The position numbers were made by a program, and so were the translations under genes. Below are positions 48,918 through 61,352 of a stretch of 64,000 bases of DNA, in pieces. The stretch comes from Clostridiales bacterium (GTDB lineage: Bacteria; Bacillota; Clostridia; Christensenellales; Borkfalkiaceae), in the NCBI GenBank assembly GCA_015055525.1, contig SVHZ01000004.1, positions 187 to 64,186 of the forward strand, given 5' to 3'. The notes beneath the pieces are model-generated. The model saw only the letters and a list, made by a program, of their open reading frames with translations. It was not told the origin of the DNA and did not search any database. Position 1 is the first letter of the stretch; each line of letters opens with the position of its first letter.

Positions 48918-50018
48918 TTAACCATTTATTCTCAAAGGTACTATAAGATATAAGTAATCATTTCCAGAATAAGGCTTAATTACTACCGGATTTATCTTGT
49001 TATTGAAGTATAAATTTACAAATTCATCGTCTATTGCTTTAATACTTTCAATTATGTATTTTGAGTTGAAAGAAATAGTTAAATCTTTTCCTTCAAGGTT
49101 TATAAGAACGTTTTCGTTCATTTTACCAACTTCACTTGAAGATGAAATAGTCATATAATTTTCTTTAATATCAAGTTTAACAATCTTTTTTACGTCAGTC
49201 GTTAAAACAGACGCTCTTTCAATAGCGGTTATAAGTTGATTTTTATTAACTTTTACTAAAGAAAGGTAATCTTCTTTAATAATGTTTCTATAATCTATAT
49301 AATCGCCTTCTAAAAGCCTTGAAATTAAAACAGTTCCGTTTACTTCACACATTAAAACGTTCTTTTGAATTATGATAGTTACTACTTCTTCATCTTTTTC
49401 TAAAATTCTAACTATTTCGTTTAACGTTCTGCTATTTGCAATAAACTTGAAATTTTCACTCTTTTCAATAAGTTTTTTTCTATATAAAGCAAGCCTAAAC
49501 CCGTCGAGCGCAACTGAAGAAATTTCATCTCCTTCAATTTCAATTAAACAACCTTTAAGAAGTGGTCTAGCCTCATCTTGAGAGCAAGCAAAACTTGTTT
49601 TTAAGATAAGTTCTTTCAAATCTTTTTGTTTTAATGAAAAATATTTTTCTTTTATATCTTTATTTATCAAAGGAAACTCTTCCGCTGGTAAAGTTTGAAT
49701 AAAACCTTCACTTGAACCGTAACTTATTTTTAACTCTTTTTCAAATAAAGAAAATTCTATTTCTTCTTCGTCTTCAATCTTTTTAATAAACTCTGCAAAA
49801 GTTTTACCGGGAACAACCGTTTCACCTTCTGTAAAAGTAGACGCTATGATAGTTTTTTCAATAGAAATTTCAGTATCCGTTGCAACGAGTGTTAATTCAT
49901 CGCCTTTTATTGATAACTTAATACCTTCTAAAATAGGATTAGTAGTCTTAGAAGATACTGCTTTAACAACTTTTGCAACCGCTTCAGATAATTGAGTTCC
50001 GTTCACAACGAATTTCAT
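48918..50018 (-). CDS. dnaN: DNA polymerase III beta sliding clamp
   Basis: 366 aa with three-domain clamp sequence features (NPILEGIKL, ARPLLKGC, PVVIKP). Confidence 0.9.
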   Translation of the reverse strand: MKFVVNGTQLSEAVAKVVKAVSSKTTNPILEGIKLSIKGDELTLVATDTEISIEKTIIASTFTEGETVVPGKTFAEFIKKIEDEEEIEFSLFEKELKISYGSSEGFIQTLPAEEFPLINKDIKEKYFSLKQKDLKELILKTSFACSQDEARPLLKGCLIEIEGDEISSVALDGFRLALYRKKLIEKSENFKFIANSRTLNEIVRILEKDEEVVTIIIQKNVLMCEVNGTVLISRLLEGDYIDYRNIIKEDYLSLVKVNKNQLITAIERASVLTTDVKKIVKLDIKENYMTISSSSEVGKMNENVLINLEGKDLTISFNSKYIIESIKAIDDEFVNLYFNNKINPVVIKPYSGNDYLYLIVPLRING

Positions 50019-50369
50019 ATAGATAACTCCTTTTATTTTAGATATAAAATAATAGTAATAATAGATAACGTTAAAATGTTTATAAAAAATTAAAATTCGT
50101 TAAAAATAACCATTTTATAAGAAAAAATAGAAAAAATAACGAAGTTGATAAAAAGTTAATAAAAAAATAAACCATTAATAAAGTTAAATTTTATAAACGC
50201 CGAATACTATAATATTAACATATATATTATATATAATAAATACTAAAAAATCAATAAATTTTGAAAAGTAAAAAGAAAATTTTGAAATATAAACAAATAT
50301 ATTAACATTGTTGATAAAAAGACGTTAATAAAAATTGAAAAGTTAAAAAAAATGTGATATAATCTCACT

Positions 50370-51053
50370 ATGTTTGAGATTTTGAAGATAAAAAACTTAA
50401 TAGAGAGCGAAGAACAAGAGAAAAAACTCTATGAGTTTTTAACTTTACTTAAAGAGTGGAATCAAAAATTTAATCTCACTTCTATAAAAGAAGATAAAGA
50501 AATTGAGATAAAACATTTTGAAGACTGTTTAGTGGGTGCAAAGTTTTTTCCTTATAATAAAAAAGTTGTTGAAATAGGTAGCGGTGGTGGGTTTCCATCA
50601 ATTCCCGTTATGATAGTTAGAAACGATTTATCTTTTACTTTGGTTGAATCTGTTGGTAAAAAGTGTGAGTTTTTAAGGAACGTTATAAAAACTCTTAACT
50701 TAAACGCCGTGGTAATAAACAAAAGAGCGGAAGATTTAGGAAAAGATAGCAAGTTTAGAGAGAGTTTTGACGTTGTTACTGCAAGGGCGGTTGCAAACCT
50801 TAACACTTTATCAGAGTATACCCTTCCTTTAATAAAAAAAGGCGGTATTTTCATCGCTTATAAGAGCCAAAACAACGAAATAATATCTGCTAAAAAAGCA
50901 ATTAAAATTCTCGGCGGAAAAGAGCGAGAAACTTTTAACTATTCTCTTTCAGAAAACGCTGGAGAAAGATGTTTATATATTATTGAAAAAGTTGAAAACA
51001 CACCCCCTTTATATCCGCGCGGAAACGGTAAGGAAAGGAGTAAGCCTTTATGA
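50370..51053 (+). CDS. rsmG: 16S rRNA (guanine527-N7)-methyltransferase
   Basis: 227 aa with the SAM motif EIGSGGGFPSIP. A TTGAAA-17-TATAAT promoter lies at 50334-50362. Confidence 0.9.
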   Translation: MFEILKIKNLIESEEQEKKLYEFLTLLKEWNQKFNLTSIKEDKEIEIKHFEDCLVGAKFFPYNKKVVEIGSGGGFPSIPVMIVRNDLSFTLVESVGKKCEFLRNVIKTLNLNAVVINKRAEDLGKDSKFRESFDVVTARAVANLNTLSEYTLPLIKKGGIFIAYKSQNNEIISAKKAIKILGGKERETFNYSLSENAGERCLYIIEKVENTPPLYPRGNGKERSKPL

Positions 51054-53512: not shown

Positions 53513-54225
53513 CTATAAAATTTTATCTTTTATATATTCTTTGATATTTTGTAATCTATTGTCGTAAAAATAACTATACACTTCGTCGTTACTAACGATA
53601 ACGTGGTCGAAAAGCGTTACTTTGTGAAAGTTCAAGAAAGTGAAAACGTTAGCCGTTGCCTTATCGTCGGCATCTGAAGGGTAAGGAAACTTTGCAAAGT
53701 GATTGTGCATAATTACCGCAGATTTTGGTTTATATGCAAGAACGCCTTTGGTAAACGCATCAAAATCAAGATTAACGCTATTTGCACTACCGTCGTCAAG
53801 CATAGTATAACCTAAAACTCTTCGCTTTGCGTCTAAGTAAAACATATAAAAAACTTCGTGATCTAAACCTTTGAATAAACTAGTCGCAAGTTTTTAACCG
53901 AATCAATATTGTTAAGAACAATAGTCTCTTTTTTAGAATTATCTATGAGAGAGCCCATATAGTTCACTAACGATATAAGCGTTGCCGAAGTTTCGCCAAC
54001 TCCTTCAATTCTAGATAAAAGTTCGGGGCTTGCAGATAAAACGGCTTGCAAATTACCAAACTCTTTTATTAGGCGGTGGGCGACAGGATTAGTGTCCTTA
54101 CGAGGGATGGAATAAGAAAGGAGAAGTTCTAAAAGTTCGTGTTCCTTAAACGTTTCTTTTCCCTTATTAAATTTTTCGCGCAGGCGTTTTCTATGCCCGT
54201 CGTGCAAGGAATCTTTTTCGCTCAT
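53513..54225 (-). pseudogene. radC: radC-like JAB-domain gene interrupted by a frameshift (two ORFs: 53863..54225 and 53513..53845)
   Basis: The N-terminal ORF has the RadC HhH part (HRKRLREKF...ELLELLLSYSIPRKDTNPVAHRLIKEFGNL). The C-terminal ORF has the JAMM motif HNHFAKFPYPSDAD. The C-terminal frame stays open upstream to KLATSLFKGLDHEVFYMFYLD, and the two frames meet at an A5 run (plus ttttt at 53891-53895). Confidence 0.7.
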
Positions 54226-54325
54226 CTTTAGTAACATCCGTATTTTTTTATCATTGTAACACATTTTTTGCAAAAAGTTAACCATTATTATATGTATTTT
54301 TCAAAAAATAGTATATAATAAAAGC

Positions 54326-57696: not shown

Positions 57697-59055
57697 TTAT
57701 TTAATCTTGGTGTAAAGAACGCAACTACAAGTGCAAGGATTTCCGCAGTTGGGGCAAGAAAACCCTTCTTTTATGCTTGACTCGTACCAATACTTTGGCA
57801 TTGTTATTTCTTCAATAAAGCCAAGGTTTTCTAAAACGGAGGCAACGTTTGTTATCCCAGAGTGTTTCCATGCGGTAGAGATAAAGCAAGTTATTCCGTC
57901 TTCTTTTAATTTTTCTATGCATTTGCCAACGAGCGCCGTTGCTATTCCCAAATGCTTAAATTCCGATTTAGTTGCAACGGTTGCAATATAGCCTATTTCT
58001 TTTGCAAACATCATATTTCTAAGTTTGTAACCTTTGCTTATCTTAACTGCATCGTCGTAAGAAATTTTTTTGTAAATGCAAAACGAAATAACGTTATTAG
58101 TCGCGTTTTCAACGGCAACGTAAAGTTCATCGCTCAAATTTTTATCTAGGGTTTTTTCAAGCCTTTCTTTTGTAAGATAATCTTCCCCAAGTTCAGCATC
58201 TGCAATCTTTATTACGCTTGCAAAATCTTGAAGAGTTGCTTTTCTTGTAGAAAAGCCTTTGTATCTACGTTTGAATATATATTTACCCGTAGTGATAGAA
58301 TTGTTAACGTTGTCGTATCCCGACCAGAAACCTTCTAAAGTGTTAGCGTCTTTGACGTTGAGAAAGAAATTGCCTATACCGTCGTCAATGTTAGATTTTG
58401 CAAAATACGTTCCAACAATTCGCTTGTTGCCGTAAATTTTTGCCCTTACGTCCCAAGCCTGAGAATCGCCAAACCAAGTTTTTCCCGTTATTCGCCCCAT
58501 AAAACTTTTCAAAACGACGGGCGCTCTTCTCATAACCACTCTGCCGTCTTCTTCGTCTTCGTAAAAGGACATATATTCACCGCTTATCTTAAAGCGTTTT
58601 CTCACCTTAACGTCGTAAACGGGAGATTCCGTTATGTGCTTTTTGCGTTGGAGCATACCGCTTAAAATTTCAAGCCGAGAAGATAGCGTTTGGTTTGAAA
58701 ATTCTATCGCTTGAAACATCCTTAAAGTTTCAAGGTCGTTTGGCATATCAACGGGGTATTCAAAACCTTCTTCTTGCAAAACGATAACGTTCAAATTATG
58801 CTCGATAGCAAGTAAAATTTCTTTATAAACCCAGTCGTTTGGCTCTTTGCATCTATCAAGAGCGCCAACCGAAAGAATTAAAACGTAGTTTAGCGAGTTT
58901 ACGAGATTGTGTTTAAGTTGCTCGTCAAAACGACCGGAACTCATACCCGTTATATCGTAAAAAGGGTTATAACCTTTGAGTTTAAGATAGTCGTAAACTC
59001 TTGCGGCAAAGTTTGCCCCGCCTATTCTTCTATAACTAATAAACGTGTCGAACAT
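57697..59055 (-). CDS. TIR domain - unknown beta-rich middle domain - GNAT acetyltransferase - Cys-rich tail fusion protein
   Basis: Start set at the ATG at 59055 (SD aaggag). The TIR N-terminus reads MFDTFISYRR...YVLILS...NDWVYKEILLA (an SxWCxxEL-like motif with Glu). The GNAT motif is EFKHLGIATALVGKCIEKL. The C-terminus is CPNCGNPCTCSC. Confidence 0.75.
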   Translation of the reverse strand: MFDTFISYRRIGGANFAARVYDYLKLKGYNPFYDITGMSSGRFDEQLKHNLVNSLNYVLILSVGALDRCKEPNDWVYKEILLAIEHNLNVIVLQEEGFEYPVDMPNDLETLRMFQAIEFSNQTLSSRLEILSGMLQRKKHITESPVYDVKVRKRFKISGEYMSFYEDEEDGRVVMRRAPVVLKSFMGRITGKTWFGDSQAWDVRAKIYGNKRIVGTYFAKSNIDDGIGNFFLNVKDANTLEGFWSGYDNVNNSITTGKYIFKRRYKGFSTRKATLQDFASVIKIADAELGEDYLTKERLEKTLDKNLSDELYVAVENATNNVISFCIYKKISYDDAVKISKGYKLRNMMFAKEIGYIATVATKSEFKHLGIATALVGKCIEKLKEDGITCFISTAWKHSGITNVASVLENLGFIEEITMPKYWYESSIKEGFSCPNCGNPCTCSCVLYTKIK

Positions 59056-59243
59056 AAATTTTCTCCTTCTAAAGTAGTATAACACGATTTTTCACTATTT
59101 GTCAAAGTGGAAGATATTATTTTTAGCGAGCGCCCACCTATTTATTGAACAGGTGCTTAAATTAAATAGTAAACGATAAAATTATTGCTAAAAACTAATA
59201 ATTATGATATAATTAGCAAATCAAAAATACAAATGAGGCAAAT

Positions 59244-61352
59244 ATGTTCAAAAAGTTAAAACAATGGTTTAGTATTCAAGTTGTAAAAAATCCAAGAAAT
59301 ATGGTGCTTGGTGCAATCTTGTTATTCAACGTTATTTTCGTTGTTTTGTCGGCGCTTATCATAAGCGCTTTGTCGCTTGACGGAACAGAAAATATGAGTT
59401 TCTTAGAAGCGGCGTTCTGCACGATTACTATGATTCTCGACGCTGGTTGTATATCTTACGTTATTGCTGATATTGGTCACTCTGGCGTGATTATAACTAT
59501 CGTGTGTTTGCTCGTTGTTTTTACCGGTATGATTTCGTTTACGGGCGCAGTTATCGGTTACGTTACTAACTACATTTCTTCATTTATTGAAAACGCAAAT
59601 TCAGGCAAGAGAAAACTTCACCTTTCAAATCATTTCGTTCTTATAAACTGGAATAGTAGAGCGTCTGAAATCGTCAACGATATGCTTTATAGCGAAACGG
59701 AGCAAAAAGTAGTAGTTTTAGTTCCCGACAGGAAAGAAGAGATTGAAAAGGAGATTGAAGAAAGGCTTTCTGAAACTATCGTTAGGGAAAACAAGGCGAT
59801 AGAAAAAGAGTTTGCGCATCTTCCCTTCTTTGCAAGAAAGTTAGCAATAAGAAAAAATCGTTTTAAGAAAAAAGTTACCGTTATTATCAAGGAAGGGGAT
59901 ATCTTCTCTTCAAAGCAATTAAGAGATATTTCTCTTGATATGGCAAGGTCTATAATAATTCTCGAAGGCGATTTTAACAATAGCACTTGCAAGTATGAAA
60001 GCGCCGAAAGAAGAAACGAACTTGGAAAAGGCAACGCTTTAACGATAAAAACGCTTATGCAAGTTGCCGATATTACCGCGGCGGAAACTTCGCTTGACGA
60101 TCAAAGAATTATCGTTGAAATTACCGACCTTTGGACTTTGGATATCGTCAACAAGATAATTGAAGCAAAACAAGTTGACGGGAAGTGCAATATTATCCCC
60201 GTTAGAATCAACCAAGTTCTCGGTCAAATTTTATCTCAATTCTGCATTATGCCAGAACTCAACGCGGTATATAGCGAACTCTTTTCTAATAAAGGTTCAG
60301 AATTTTATTCTGAAAAAACTCAAGAGTATACTGAAGAAATTTCGTTTATCGAAGGTTACTTAAAAGAACATAATCACGCCCTTCCAATAACGATAAGGGA
60401 AGAAAACGGCAATCATTTTGCTTATTACTTGGGTGAAAATAATAAAGATTTACATAGAAAAACTCACGTTAAAACAACAGATTATGCAATATCTCTTAAA
60501 AAGAACTACTGGCTTGAAAAGAGAAACGTTATAATTTTGGGTCATAACAGCAAGAGCAAATTTATTATGGCTGGTTTCCAAGCGTTTAGCAACGAGTGGA
60601 AGCGCGGAAACGAAGAAATCGTTGATATTTTAGTTGTTGATAATAAAGAAAATCTTGAAAAAGCAAATTATTACAAAGATTATTCTTTCGTTACCAATAC
60701 CGTTGAGGCGGATATTTACGATAAGGAAAAACTTGTTAAAACTATTGAAAATTACGTTGACGCGCACGCTGGCGATATAAGTATTCTTATTCTATCTGAT
60801 GATATGGCGTCTAATGATAATATCGATGCAAGTGCGCTCGTTAACCTTATCAACGTGAGAAACGTCATCGATAAAAAATTAAAAGAAAATCCTAATTTTG
60901 ATGCGAAAAAGATTGACGTTATCGTTGAAATTATCAATCCTAAGCATCACGACATCGTTAATAGTTATAGCGTTAAGAACGTTGTTATTAGTAACAGATA
61001 CGTAAGTAAAATGGTTACTCAAATTAGTGAAATGGAAGCCCTTTATAACTTCTATAACGATATTCTTTCTTACGACGAAGAAGGCGTTGACGATTATAGC
61101 AGTAAAGAAGTTTACATTAAGAAAGTTACTCGCTATTTTGATGAAGTTCCCGCTCCGACAACTGCCGATCAATTAGTTCGCGCAATATACAAAGAGTCTA
61201 TGAAACCCGATAGTGAAGGCCATATTAACCCGACAATTGCAATCGGTTACGTTGACCAAAACGGAAAAGTTATTATTTTTAACGGTGACTTATCTAAGTT
61301 CCACGTAGAACTCACAGAAAAAGATAAAATTATCTTATTTGCTTTCCACTAA
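59244..61352 (+). CDS. CASTOR/POLLUX-like ion channel with tandem RCK/TrkA-N-like cytoplasmic domains
   Basis: 702 aa with an N-terminal pore module (three hydrophobic helices and a filter-like CTITMILDAGCI). Two Rossmann-like blocks begin HFVLINWNSRASEIV and NVIILGHNSKSKFIM. A TTGCTA-17-TATAAT promoter lies upstream. Confidence 0.65.
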   Translation: MFKKLKQWFSIQVVKNPRNMVLGAILLFNVIFVVLSALIISALSLDGTENMSFLEAAFCTITMILDAGCISYVIADIGHSGVIITIVCLLVVFTGMISFTGAVIGYVTNYISSFIENANSGKRKLHLSNHFVLINWNSRASEIVNDMLYSETEQKVVVLVPDRKEEIEKEIEERLSETIVRENKAIEKEFAHLPFFARKLAIRKNRFKKKVTVIIKEGDIFSSKQLRDISLDMARSIIILEGDFNNSTCKYESAERRNELGKGNALTIKTLMQVADITAAETSLDDQRIIVEITDLWTLDIVNKIIEAKQVDGKCNIIPVRINQVLGQILSQFCIMPELNAVYSELFSNKGSEFYSEKTQEYTEEISFIEGYLKEHNHALPITIREENGNHFAYYLGENNKDLHRKTHVKTTDYAISLKKNYWLEKRNVIILGHNSKSKFIMAGFQAFSNEWKRGNEEIVDILVVDNKENLEKANYYKDYSFVTNTVEADIYDKEKLVKTIENYVDAHAGDISILILSDDMASNDNIDASALVNLINVRNVIDKKLKENPNFDAKKIDVIVEIINPKHHDIVNSYSVKNVVISNRYVSKMVTQISEMEALYNFYNDILSYDEEGVDDYSSKEVYIKKVTRYFDEVPAPTTADQLVRAIYKESMKPDSEGHINPTIAIGYVDQNGKVIIFNGDLSKFHVELTEKDKIILFAFH

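Follow-up and report, generated by a model that had tools for sequence, protein, structure and literature searches.

A TIR domain on a barrel-GNAT module with exchanged N-termini in a Clostridiales bacterium

The DNA analysed here, called the window in the following, is a stretch of 64,000 nucleotides (nt) from contig SVHZ01000004.1 of a Clostridiales bacterium (assembly GCA_015055525.1). On its reverse strand lies an intact gene of 452 codons. The gene encodes a TIR domain, a flexible linker, an eight-stranded beta-barrel and a GNAT acetyltransferase fold with a cysteine knuckle (Table 1). The initial annotation had located this TIR-GNAT gene correctly, and every motif that it quoted (FISYRR, NDWVYKEILLA, HLGIATALVGKCIEKL and CPNCGNPCTCSC) is found in the protein. 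We lean, slightly beyond an even chance, towards an abortive-infection-type protein that unites sensor and effector in one chain and depletes nicotinamide adenine dinucleotide (NAD+).

The architecture lies far beyond chance, because the TIR domain of human SARM1 is matched at E 1e-21 over residues 3-131 (phmmer, all PDB sequences) and because about 75 full-length relatives of the TIR type exist at 41-88% identity. In a word-indexed search all of these relatives come from uncultured Clostridia-type genomes and carry generic names only. Although the open reading frame (ORF) reaches back to a GTG at 59085, the true start codon is the ATG at 59055, since AAGGAG stands 7 nt upstream of it and all relatives begin with MFDTFISYRR.

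Table 1. Features of the TIR-GNAT gene and of its surroundings, in window positions
Feature	Positions	Strand	Basis or remark
Coding sequence of the 452-amino-acid (aa) TIR-barrel-GNAT-Cys protein	57697..59055	-	Stop codon included; 75 full-length relatives without disruptions
TIR domain, SARM1-like, residues 1-135	58651..59055	-	Pfam TIR_2, phmmer, Foldseek
Codon of Glu79, equivalent of SARM1 catalytic Glu642	58819..58821	-	DWVYKEI aligned with SARM1 DWVHKEI
Flexible linker, residues 136-157	58585..58650	-	Predicted local distance difference test (pLDDT) down to ~46, no predicted secondary structure; sequence varies among relatives
Eight-stranded up-and-down beta-barrel, residues 158-272	58240..58584	-	AlphaFold2 models
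GNAT acetyltransferase fold, residues 273-452	57700..58239	-	Pfam, Foldseek, weak Naa30 match
Likely coenzyme A (CoA) pyrophosphate-binding loop K-H-L-G-I-A (Q/R-x-x-G-x-G/A motif)	57940..57957	-	Sequence motif
Cys knuckle C434-x2-C437-x3-C441-x-C443 (plus C445)	57721..57756	-	Just before the last GNAT strand
Ribosome-binding site AAGGAG	59063..59068	-	7 nt before the ATG, read from the sequence
Putative sigma-70-type promoter, TTGACA / 18-nt spacer / TG-extended TATACT	59076..59105	-	11/12 consensus positions, directly upstream; consensus match only
Channel-like gene, 702-aa membrane protein	59244-61352	+	No Pfam match at E<=0.001; 66% and 38% identity in two congeners
RadC-like gene, apparently split	53513-54285	-	UPF0758/HhH part 53863-54285, JAB part 53513-53845
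Very AT-rich stretch	50000-50499		GC 0.18 (composition profile)

The TIR domain and the module behind it

The N-terminus had been called a bacterial TIR domain with a catalytic glutamate, and both the fold and the glutamate hold. Pfam TIR_2 (PF13676) matches residues 5-120 with 31.2 bits against a cut-off of 28, and TIR-1 of C. elegans is matched in the PDB at E 1e-17 (phmmer). An AlphaFold2 model of the full protein, built on 35 relatives, reaches a mean pLDDT of 84. Its best Foldseek match is the SARM1 TIR domain (E 1.8e-11, template modelling score (TM) 0.87, root mean square deviation (rmsd) 2.9 Å, 33-34% identity over ~140 residues). By these matches the domain belongs to the SARM1-like clade.

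We counted residue conservation over the 75 TIR-type relatives. Glu79 (E642 in SARM1), Arg9 (R569), Asp34 (D594), Gly41 (G601) and Phe43 (F603) are kept in 75/75. Tyr8 (Y568), Arg10 (R570) and Trp75 (W638) are kept in 74/75, and Arg68 (K628) in 73/75. SARM1 H640 and H685 have no counterparts here, as Tyr77 and Asn121 stand in their places. In SARM1, Glu642 is catalytic, and the changes E642A, Y568A, D594A, G601P and W638A strongly lower activity or multimerisation (PMC8266388). Since catalytic and assembly residues are both kept, the alignment identifies the TIR domain as one of the NAD-consuming, assembly-activated type, which would make it a NAD+ glycohydrolase (NADase).

The protein shares with SARM1 and TIR-1 the catalytic Glu, the SYRR motif, the BB-loop Asp/Gly/Phe, the ALD(K/R)C motif and the DW motif. 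Unlike them it has no ARM or SAM domains. Hence autoinhibition and octamer scaffolding must come from elsewhere, presumably from the barrel-GNAT module.

The region behind the linker had been described as beta-rich and of no known family. AlphaFold2 models it as a barrel of eight long antiparallel strands (residues 159-272, pLDDT ~85). Modelled alone from 17 relatives, it again forms an up-and-down barrel (pLDDT 85, predicted TM score (pTM) 0.75). No sequence-level match to the barrel was found in Pfam (E<=1), in a PDB profile search or in PADLOC. Foldseek returns weak, fold-level matches only (E ~1e-3), among them the NHBA C-domain, Bacteroides lipocalin-like proteins, Cap15 (7n34), avidins and designed barrels. 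Barrels of this predicted fold class typically hold small molecules, and we claim no more than that.

The GNAT domain is borne out by Pfam Acetyltransf_1 (residues 290-392, 28.5 bits against a cut-off of 20.7), by Pfam FR47 (27.1 bits against 22.1) and by many GNAT structures that Foldseek matches at E 1e-7 to 1e-8. In GNATs the Q/R-x-x-G-x-G/A loop binds CoA. Conservation in the module was counted over 95 relatives without a TIR domain. In this loop Gly370 is found in 93/95 of them and position 372 is G or A in 95/95; the GNAT part likely binds CoA. C434, C441 and C443 are each present in 95/95 and C437 in 80/95, and the Cys knuckle is a probable zinc site. Trp396, Trp423, Cys434, Cys441 and Cys443 are invariant residues of the module family's own.

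A kinship with the tRNA-acetylating toxins TacT and AtaT, which the initial annotation had brought up, finds no support. The nearest enzymes are, weakly, N-alpha- and arylalkylamine acetyltransferases, and the best PDB sequence match of the GNAT part is Naa30 at only E 0.0015. The fold and the CoA loop are shared with N-alpha-acetyltransferases (Naa30, RimI, archaeal NAT) and with arylalkylamine N-acetyltransferases. The similarity to them is marginal, however, the catalytic Glu and Tyr usual in GNATs are replaced, and the AW motif, the YW motif and the Cys3-4 knuckle before the last strand are unique to the module. With TacT, AtaT, ItaT and KacT the protein shares the GNAT fold and may share a role in growth arrest. 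Specific similarity to them is lacking, no ribbon-helix-helix or helix-turn-helix (HTH) antitoxin is adjacent, and the TIR-GNAT protein is much larger and multidomain. Membership in a GNAT toxin-antitoxin system (TacAT, AtaRT type) was ruled out on two grounds: no small antitoxin gene is adjacent, and the Pfam and NCBIfam matches (E<=1) include generic GNAT models only and no toxin-type model.

A rare module with exchanged N-termini

In 1.84 billion representatives, searched exhaustively with HMMER, residues 150-450 are recovered as a separate module in about 100 clusters at 50% identity. Most members are proteins of 330-350 aa with one N-terminal hydrophobic helix, and in metagenomic members this membrane helix is itself conserved (LLGVAWENIxVGLL). 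Elsewhere the module is joined to two HTH_3 domains, to a helical domain or to a calcineurin-like metallophosphoesterase, which matches the PADLOC CBASS effector PDLC00736 (4.5e-27) and PDC-S60 (1e-28). A further partner is an Rx4H HEPN-like domain with a zinc ribbon. The HEPN call for the two proteins in question (P0141 and P0148) is weak, with a sub-threshold match to HEPN_RiboL-PSP (E 0.0034) and an RNxxxH motif.

In a maximum-likelihood tree built from 108 module sequences under LG+C20 the TIR forms make up one clade, with support 91/87 that becomes 100/93 when one long branch is taken out. Among the membrane-helix forms, one has the HEPN-like and HTH forms nested next to it (99/96), a different clade encloses the metallophosphoesterase form (100/99), and a third has the helical form as its neighbour (99/84). 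From this nesting it follows that the N-terminus was replaced several times on a constant module. The barrel-GNAT-Cys module is a rare family in its own right. As a constant part with swapped N-termini it is new; the barrel is in no Pfam model and the module in no PADLOC model, and we found no paper on it. Its constancy also favours a sensing or regulatory role of the GNAT part over that of a second toxin.

Proteins of about 185 aa that consist of the GNAT-Cys part alone occur too, and on plasmids the part was found only in this form, on Arcobacter plasmids. Eight Arcobacter/Aliarcobacter plasmids, including CP134857.1 (L048:6941-7513), carry such a protein with 31-33% identity to residues 278-450. 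On CP134857.1, the one plasmid examined, its gene directly follows those of the replication initiator and a DnaB-like helicase, with a metallophosphoesterase gene alongside. In another setting, the gene of a membrane-helix form (P0080, L032:8001-9302) is followed after 22 nt by the gene of an 88-aa HicB-like antitoxin, with no HicA gene present. This pair is inserted in a xanthine-dehydrogenase-type cluster and recurs on two more contigs.

These arrangements bear on the main rival explanation, in which the GNAT part is the one that acts. The module would then acetylate a cellular or foreign target (a protein, an aminoacyl-tRNA or a small molecule), and the N-termini would localise it, regulate it or add an activity. 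The protein would be a modifying enzyme or the toxin of an addiction or toxin-antitoxin-like element, not a sensor. The strictly kept CoA loop suggests a working cofactor site, yet the usual catalytic Glu and Tyr are missing. GNAT-Cys proteins that stand alone beside plasmid replication genes, the HicB-like gene without HicA behind P0080, and the HTH-fused P0134, which resembles fused toxin-antitoxin or autoregulated arrangements, all suit an acting GNAT. Similarity of the TacT, AtaT or ItaT type is absent, however, as is an antitoxin-like gene beside this gene and most of its relatives. In addition, TIR, metallophosphoesterase and HEPN-like N-termini are effectors in known systems, which fits a constant sensor better. 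We regard an acting GNAT as unlikely, and continue with the module as the sensing part.

Distribution, neighbours and known defence systems

The gene is accessory, rare and patchily distributed. It occurs in 1/150 other genomes of the same family and in 1/11 of the same genus, and a pattern scan of 185,579 species genomes yields 15 loci. A sample of 398 genomes of the class did not yield the module; most of them are draft assemblies (those listed are 73-100% complete), in which not found does not mean absent. A phage origin was rejected: relatives were found neither in IMG/VR (pattern scan) nor in GenBank phages (tblastn), and BFVD holds generic GNATs only.

In the window the gene and a DeoR regulator gene face each other, and the channel-like gene on its other side is transcribed away from it. 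It had been described as a stand-alone unit among housekeeping-type genes, and so it is: the flanks encode the DeoR regulator, a glycerol-3-phosphate dehydrogenase-like protein, an M20 peptidase, DUF1538 and P-II, and there is no conserved partner. No small upstream or downstream ORF forms an operon with the gene, and no antitoxin gene is adjacent. A compositional anomaly was not found, as the GC content of the gene (0.35-0.39) is that of its surroundings. Neither the 17 TIR-type loci nor the 19 membrane-helix-type loci show a recurring neighbour or operon partner.

Synteny is lost beyond the orthologue with 88% identity, and even there the DeoR and dehydrogenase genes are absent. About 1 kb from this orthologue lies the gene of a 376-aa Rep-like protein with a P-loop (FITGKAGSGKT; L003:5812-6942, - strand), followed by large secreted repeat proteins, which suggests a mobile or variable region. 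Other relatives lie between RecN and rpsB, beside BipA or beside an ABC exporter.

The channel-like gene (RCK-like) was considered as a functional partner and rejected, since the pair is absent at every other TIR-GNAT locus. In one congener the gene in front of the channel orthologue (66% identity) is a different, unrelated one, and another congener has the 88% TIR-GNAT orthologue without an adjacent channel. Further along the window, the RadC-like gene appears split. In the closest relative it is a single ORF of 250 aa, so that the split may be a frameshift, a stop or an assembly error.

With such metabolic neighbours (the glycerol-3-phosphate dehydrogenase-like gene and the DeoR regulator), and with two domains that handle central cofactors, the protein could be a housekeeping regulator that couples NAD+ and acetyl-CoA metabolism. 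A housekeeping gene would hardly be confined to one of 150 other family genomes, though, its position differs in every lineage, and the closest orthologue lies near a Rep-like gene, without the DeoR and dehydrogenase neighbours. We therefore consider a housekeeping role very improbable.

The neighbourhoods of the homologues were surveyed, and some of them are defence contexts. At two loci (L021 and L011) the TIR-GNAT gene is followed by the gene of a 995-aa TIR protein, which at L021 also has NACHT and TPR. To these L021 adds one more TIR gene as well as NUDIX (PDC-S07) and HD genes. The membrane-helix forms contribute 83 neighbours, which we searched with PADLOC and Pfam. PADLOC finds among them IetA (1.7e-70), type I and IV restriction enzymes, TRIP13, a ZorD-like protein, MzaA, PD-Lambda-2_B, PycC with PycTIR and several candidate families. 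Pfam adds Mrr_cat, AAA_16 and NA-iREase1.

As for the L021 locus itself, it is an island on a 130-kb metagenome contig (NODE_145, L021:1542-16139). Besides the TIR-GNAT, TIR-NACHT-TPR, NUDIX and HD genes it holds three large proteins (616, 726 and 776 aa, the last with a RyR domain), two small GNATs and another TIR protein of 438 aa. After these come genes of the sigma-70 region 4 and HTH_16 kinds, such as conjugative elements carry.

The host genome (1.53 Mb, 91.6% complete) has nine TIR_2 ORFs above the Pfam cut-off, the TIR-GNAT gene included. The other eight are C10:35836-36192(-), C10:36749-37105(-), C32:6399-6668(-), C32:6805-7083(-), C27:12854-13138(-), C49:1178-1501(+), C23:24035-24334(+) and C4:12344-12676(-). 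Two pairs among the nine are adjacent paralogues, and one TIR is joined to an SspH-C-terminal/mad8-like region. TIR_2 ORFs are lacking in three sampled genomes of the genus and number 0-12 in others of the family; the TIR repertoire of the genome is strain-specific. A 524-aa protein (G000:C23:24023-25597, L002:1495-3069) combines a SARM1-like TIR, BspA-type LRR_5 repeats and a C-terminal CutA1, an architecture that recurs in the list of TIR-GNAT homologues.

With nine TIR ORFs and one SIR2 ORF in the genome, the TIR domain might make a signalling nucleotide, like ThsB or plant TIRs, that a separate effector reads. The gene would then be one sensor in a distributed TIR network. The best NCBIfam and PADLOC names, ThcB4 and ThsB, point in this direction, and so do the other TIR genes that adjoin TIR-GNAT in some relatives. 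The ThcB4 score is only 35 bits against a cut-off of 220, however, and the NAD-depleting SARM1 TIR is closest by far. The SIR2 ORF lies on another contig and matches generic SIR2 models but no ThsA model, a SMODS cyclase is absent from the genome search, and relatives with a membrane helix or a nuclease-type domain cannot make signals. A signal-making TIR is quite improbable.

The target could also lie outside the cell that makes the protein: TIR signalling or NAD+ of the host, or competing bacteria. A role in interfering with hosts has been proposed for bacterial TIR proteins, and the organism is a gut Clostridia-type bacterium. But as the TIR domain begins at residue 3, the N-terminus has neither a signal peptide nor a secretion-system domain, genes for secretion or immunity are not found next to the gene, and the sister forms are membrane-anchored or HTH-bearing. 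We see little prospect for such a secreted effector.

As the initial annotation had supposed, the TIR-GNAT combination is not a described system: we found no paper on TIR-GNAT or related terms and no PADLOC model. An eLife 2020 paper on conflict systems mentions a GNAT domain in another context only. In PADLOC only the TIR part of the protein matches models, namely TIR models. Of four membrane-helix relatives, three have no PADLOC match and the fourth (P0126) has one at chance level (Cas7_IIIf, E 0.039).

Membership in Thoeris as a ThsB was ruled out. NCBIfam ThcB4 reaches 35.2 bits against a cut-off of 220, and PADLOC ThsB1 matches with 29.5 bits over a partial stretch only. No ThsA gene (SIR2-SLOG or TM-Macro) was found adjacent, where the DeoR regulator and the channel-like gene lie. 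The sole SIR2 ORF of the genome matches generic SIR2 defence models.

Membership in CBASS of the Cap15 type was ruled out as well, as there is no Cap15 model match and no CD-NTase. A SMODS cyclase was not found in the 91.6%-complete genome, there is no CD-NTase next to relatives, and the four membrane-helix relatives match neither Cap15 nor other CBASS models. Cap15 is a CBASS membrane effector with two transmembrane helices and a minimal beta-barrel for cyclic dinucleotides, and it is activated by oligomerisation (PMC10419184). The commonest relatives resemble it in that they join an N-terminal membrane helix to an eight-stranded barrel. They differ in having one helix instead of two, an extra GNAT domain and no sequence relation. 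The barrel superimposes on Cap15 (7n34) with TM 0.60/0.68 and rmsd 3.6 Å at E 1.5e-3, which is no better than for lipocalin-like proteins, avidin or designed barrels.

The closest likeness in plan is to TIR-SAVED, TIR-STING, PycTIR, TIR-NLR/Avs-like proteins and SPARTA TIR-APAZ, which also have an N-terminal TIR and a C-terminal sensing domain. As in those TIR-effector defence proteins, sister proteins exchange the TIR for a membrane helix or a nuclease-type effector, the distribution is patchy and defence genes are found nearby. The C-terminal part, in contrast, is not SAVED, STING, cNMP-binding, STAND or APAZ, and TIR-GNAT lacks the cyclase or Argonaute partner of CBASS and SPARTA.

A candidate single-chain sensor and effector

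A constant C-terminal module, interchangeable effector N-termini, rarity, the lack of a partner and defence neighbours together make up the pattern of a single-chain sensor-effector of immunity. The near-consensus promoter predicted upstream, which would give the gene its own transcription start, counts in favour of such a protein. The initial annotation had suggested an immune or NAD-linked effector. The NADase-type TIR, the stand-alone gene and the defence contexts of the homologues speak for it, and the immune function itself we infer.

TIR NADases, HEPN RNases and single membrane helices need self-association to act. Hence we propose that a cue leads the module to self-associate, which would activate the effector fused to it. 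The protein would be cytoplasmic and would work on its own, with the C-terminal module as the sensing and switching part and the TIR domain as the effector. At rest, the TIR domains would be held apart. An infection-linked cue would then make the module self-associate. The likeliest cue would be a small molecule bound by the barrel, acetyl transfer or an acetyl-CoA-dependent step at the GNAT site, or the two together. Self-association would bring the TIR domains side by side, and a composite NAD+ glycohydrolase site would form around Glu79. NAD+ would be depleted and growth would halt before the phage cycle ends. In relatives the same module would drive other proximity-activated effectors: the membrane helix, the CBASS-type metallophosphoesterase or the HEPN-like domain. 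In this mechanism we infer the NADase activity, the trigger, the oligomerisation and the phage phenotype.

A stronger claim is that the module represents a new kind of immune sensor, in which an infection-derived molecule is bound or modified in an acetyl-CoA-dependent manner and the fused effector is switched on by self-assembly. We put this forward tentatively, as a possibility somewhat on the doubtful side.

Several points weigh against an immune sensor and effector. The evidence base is wholly computational. Residues 150-452 match none of the PADLOC-DB 2.0 families at E<=1, so that the defence reading rests on architecture and context. The enrichment of defence genes near the relatives is an impression and not a statistic, and the neighbours are of housekeeping type in the window and at several relatives. 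The resemblance of the barrel to Cap15 is weak and common to many unrelated small barrels. The HTH-fused form of the module is not an obvious killer, and the existence of stand-alone GNAT-Cys proteins shows that the GNAT part can function by itself. In the Naa30 alignment other residues take the places of the strand-5 Glu and helix-4 Tyr typical of GNATs, and His398 is not conserved outside the TIR clade. The GNAT part may therefore transfer acetyl groups or only bind CoA.

TIR NADases are common to bacterial, plant and animal immunity, and how they are gated on and off is a central question. Here a SARM1-like TIR is joined to a presumed gating module that has no described counterpart and that occurs elsewhere with other killing domains. 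The genome in which it lies illustrates that small gut Clostridia genomes can hold large, strain-specific sets of TIR proteins. If the protein acts as proposed, it would add a new sensor class to the catalogue of bacterial defence, and an acetyl-CoA-linked trigger would become a testable idea. It would also offer a small, soluble, single-chain model for SARM1-type TIR activation. If the module is indeed an immune sensor, it would be the first with an acetyltransferase fold in prokaryotic immunity, and a bacterial way of gating a SARM1-type TIR without ARM and SAM domains.

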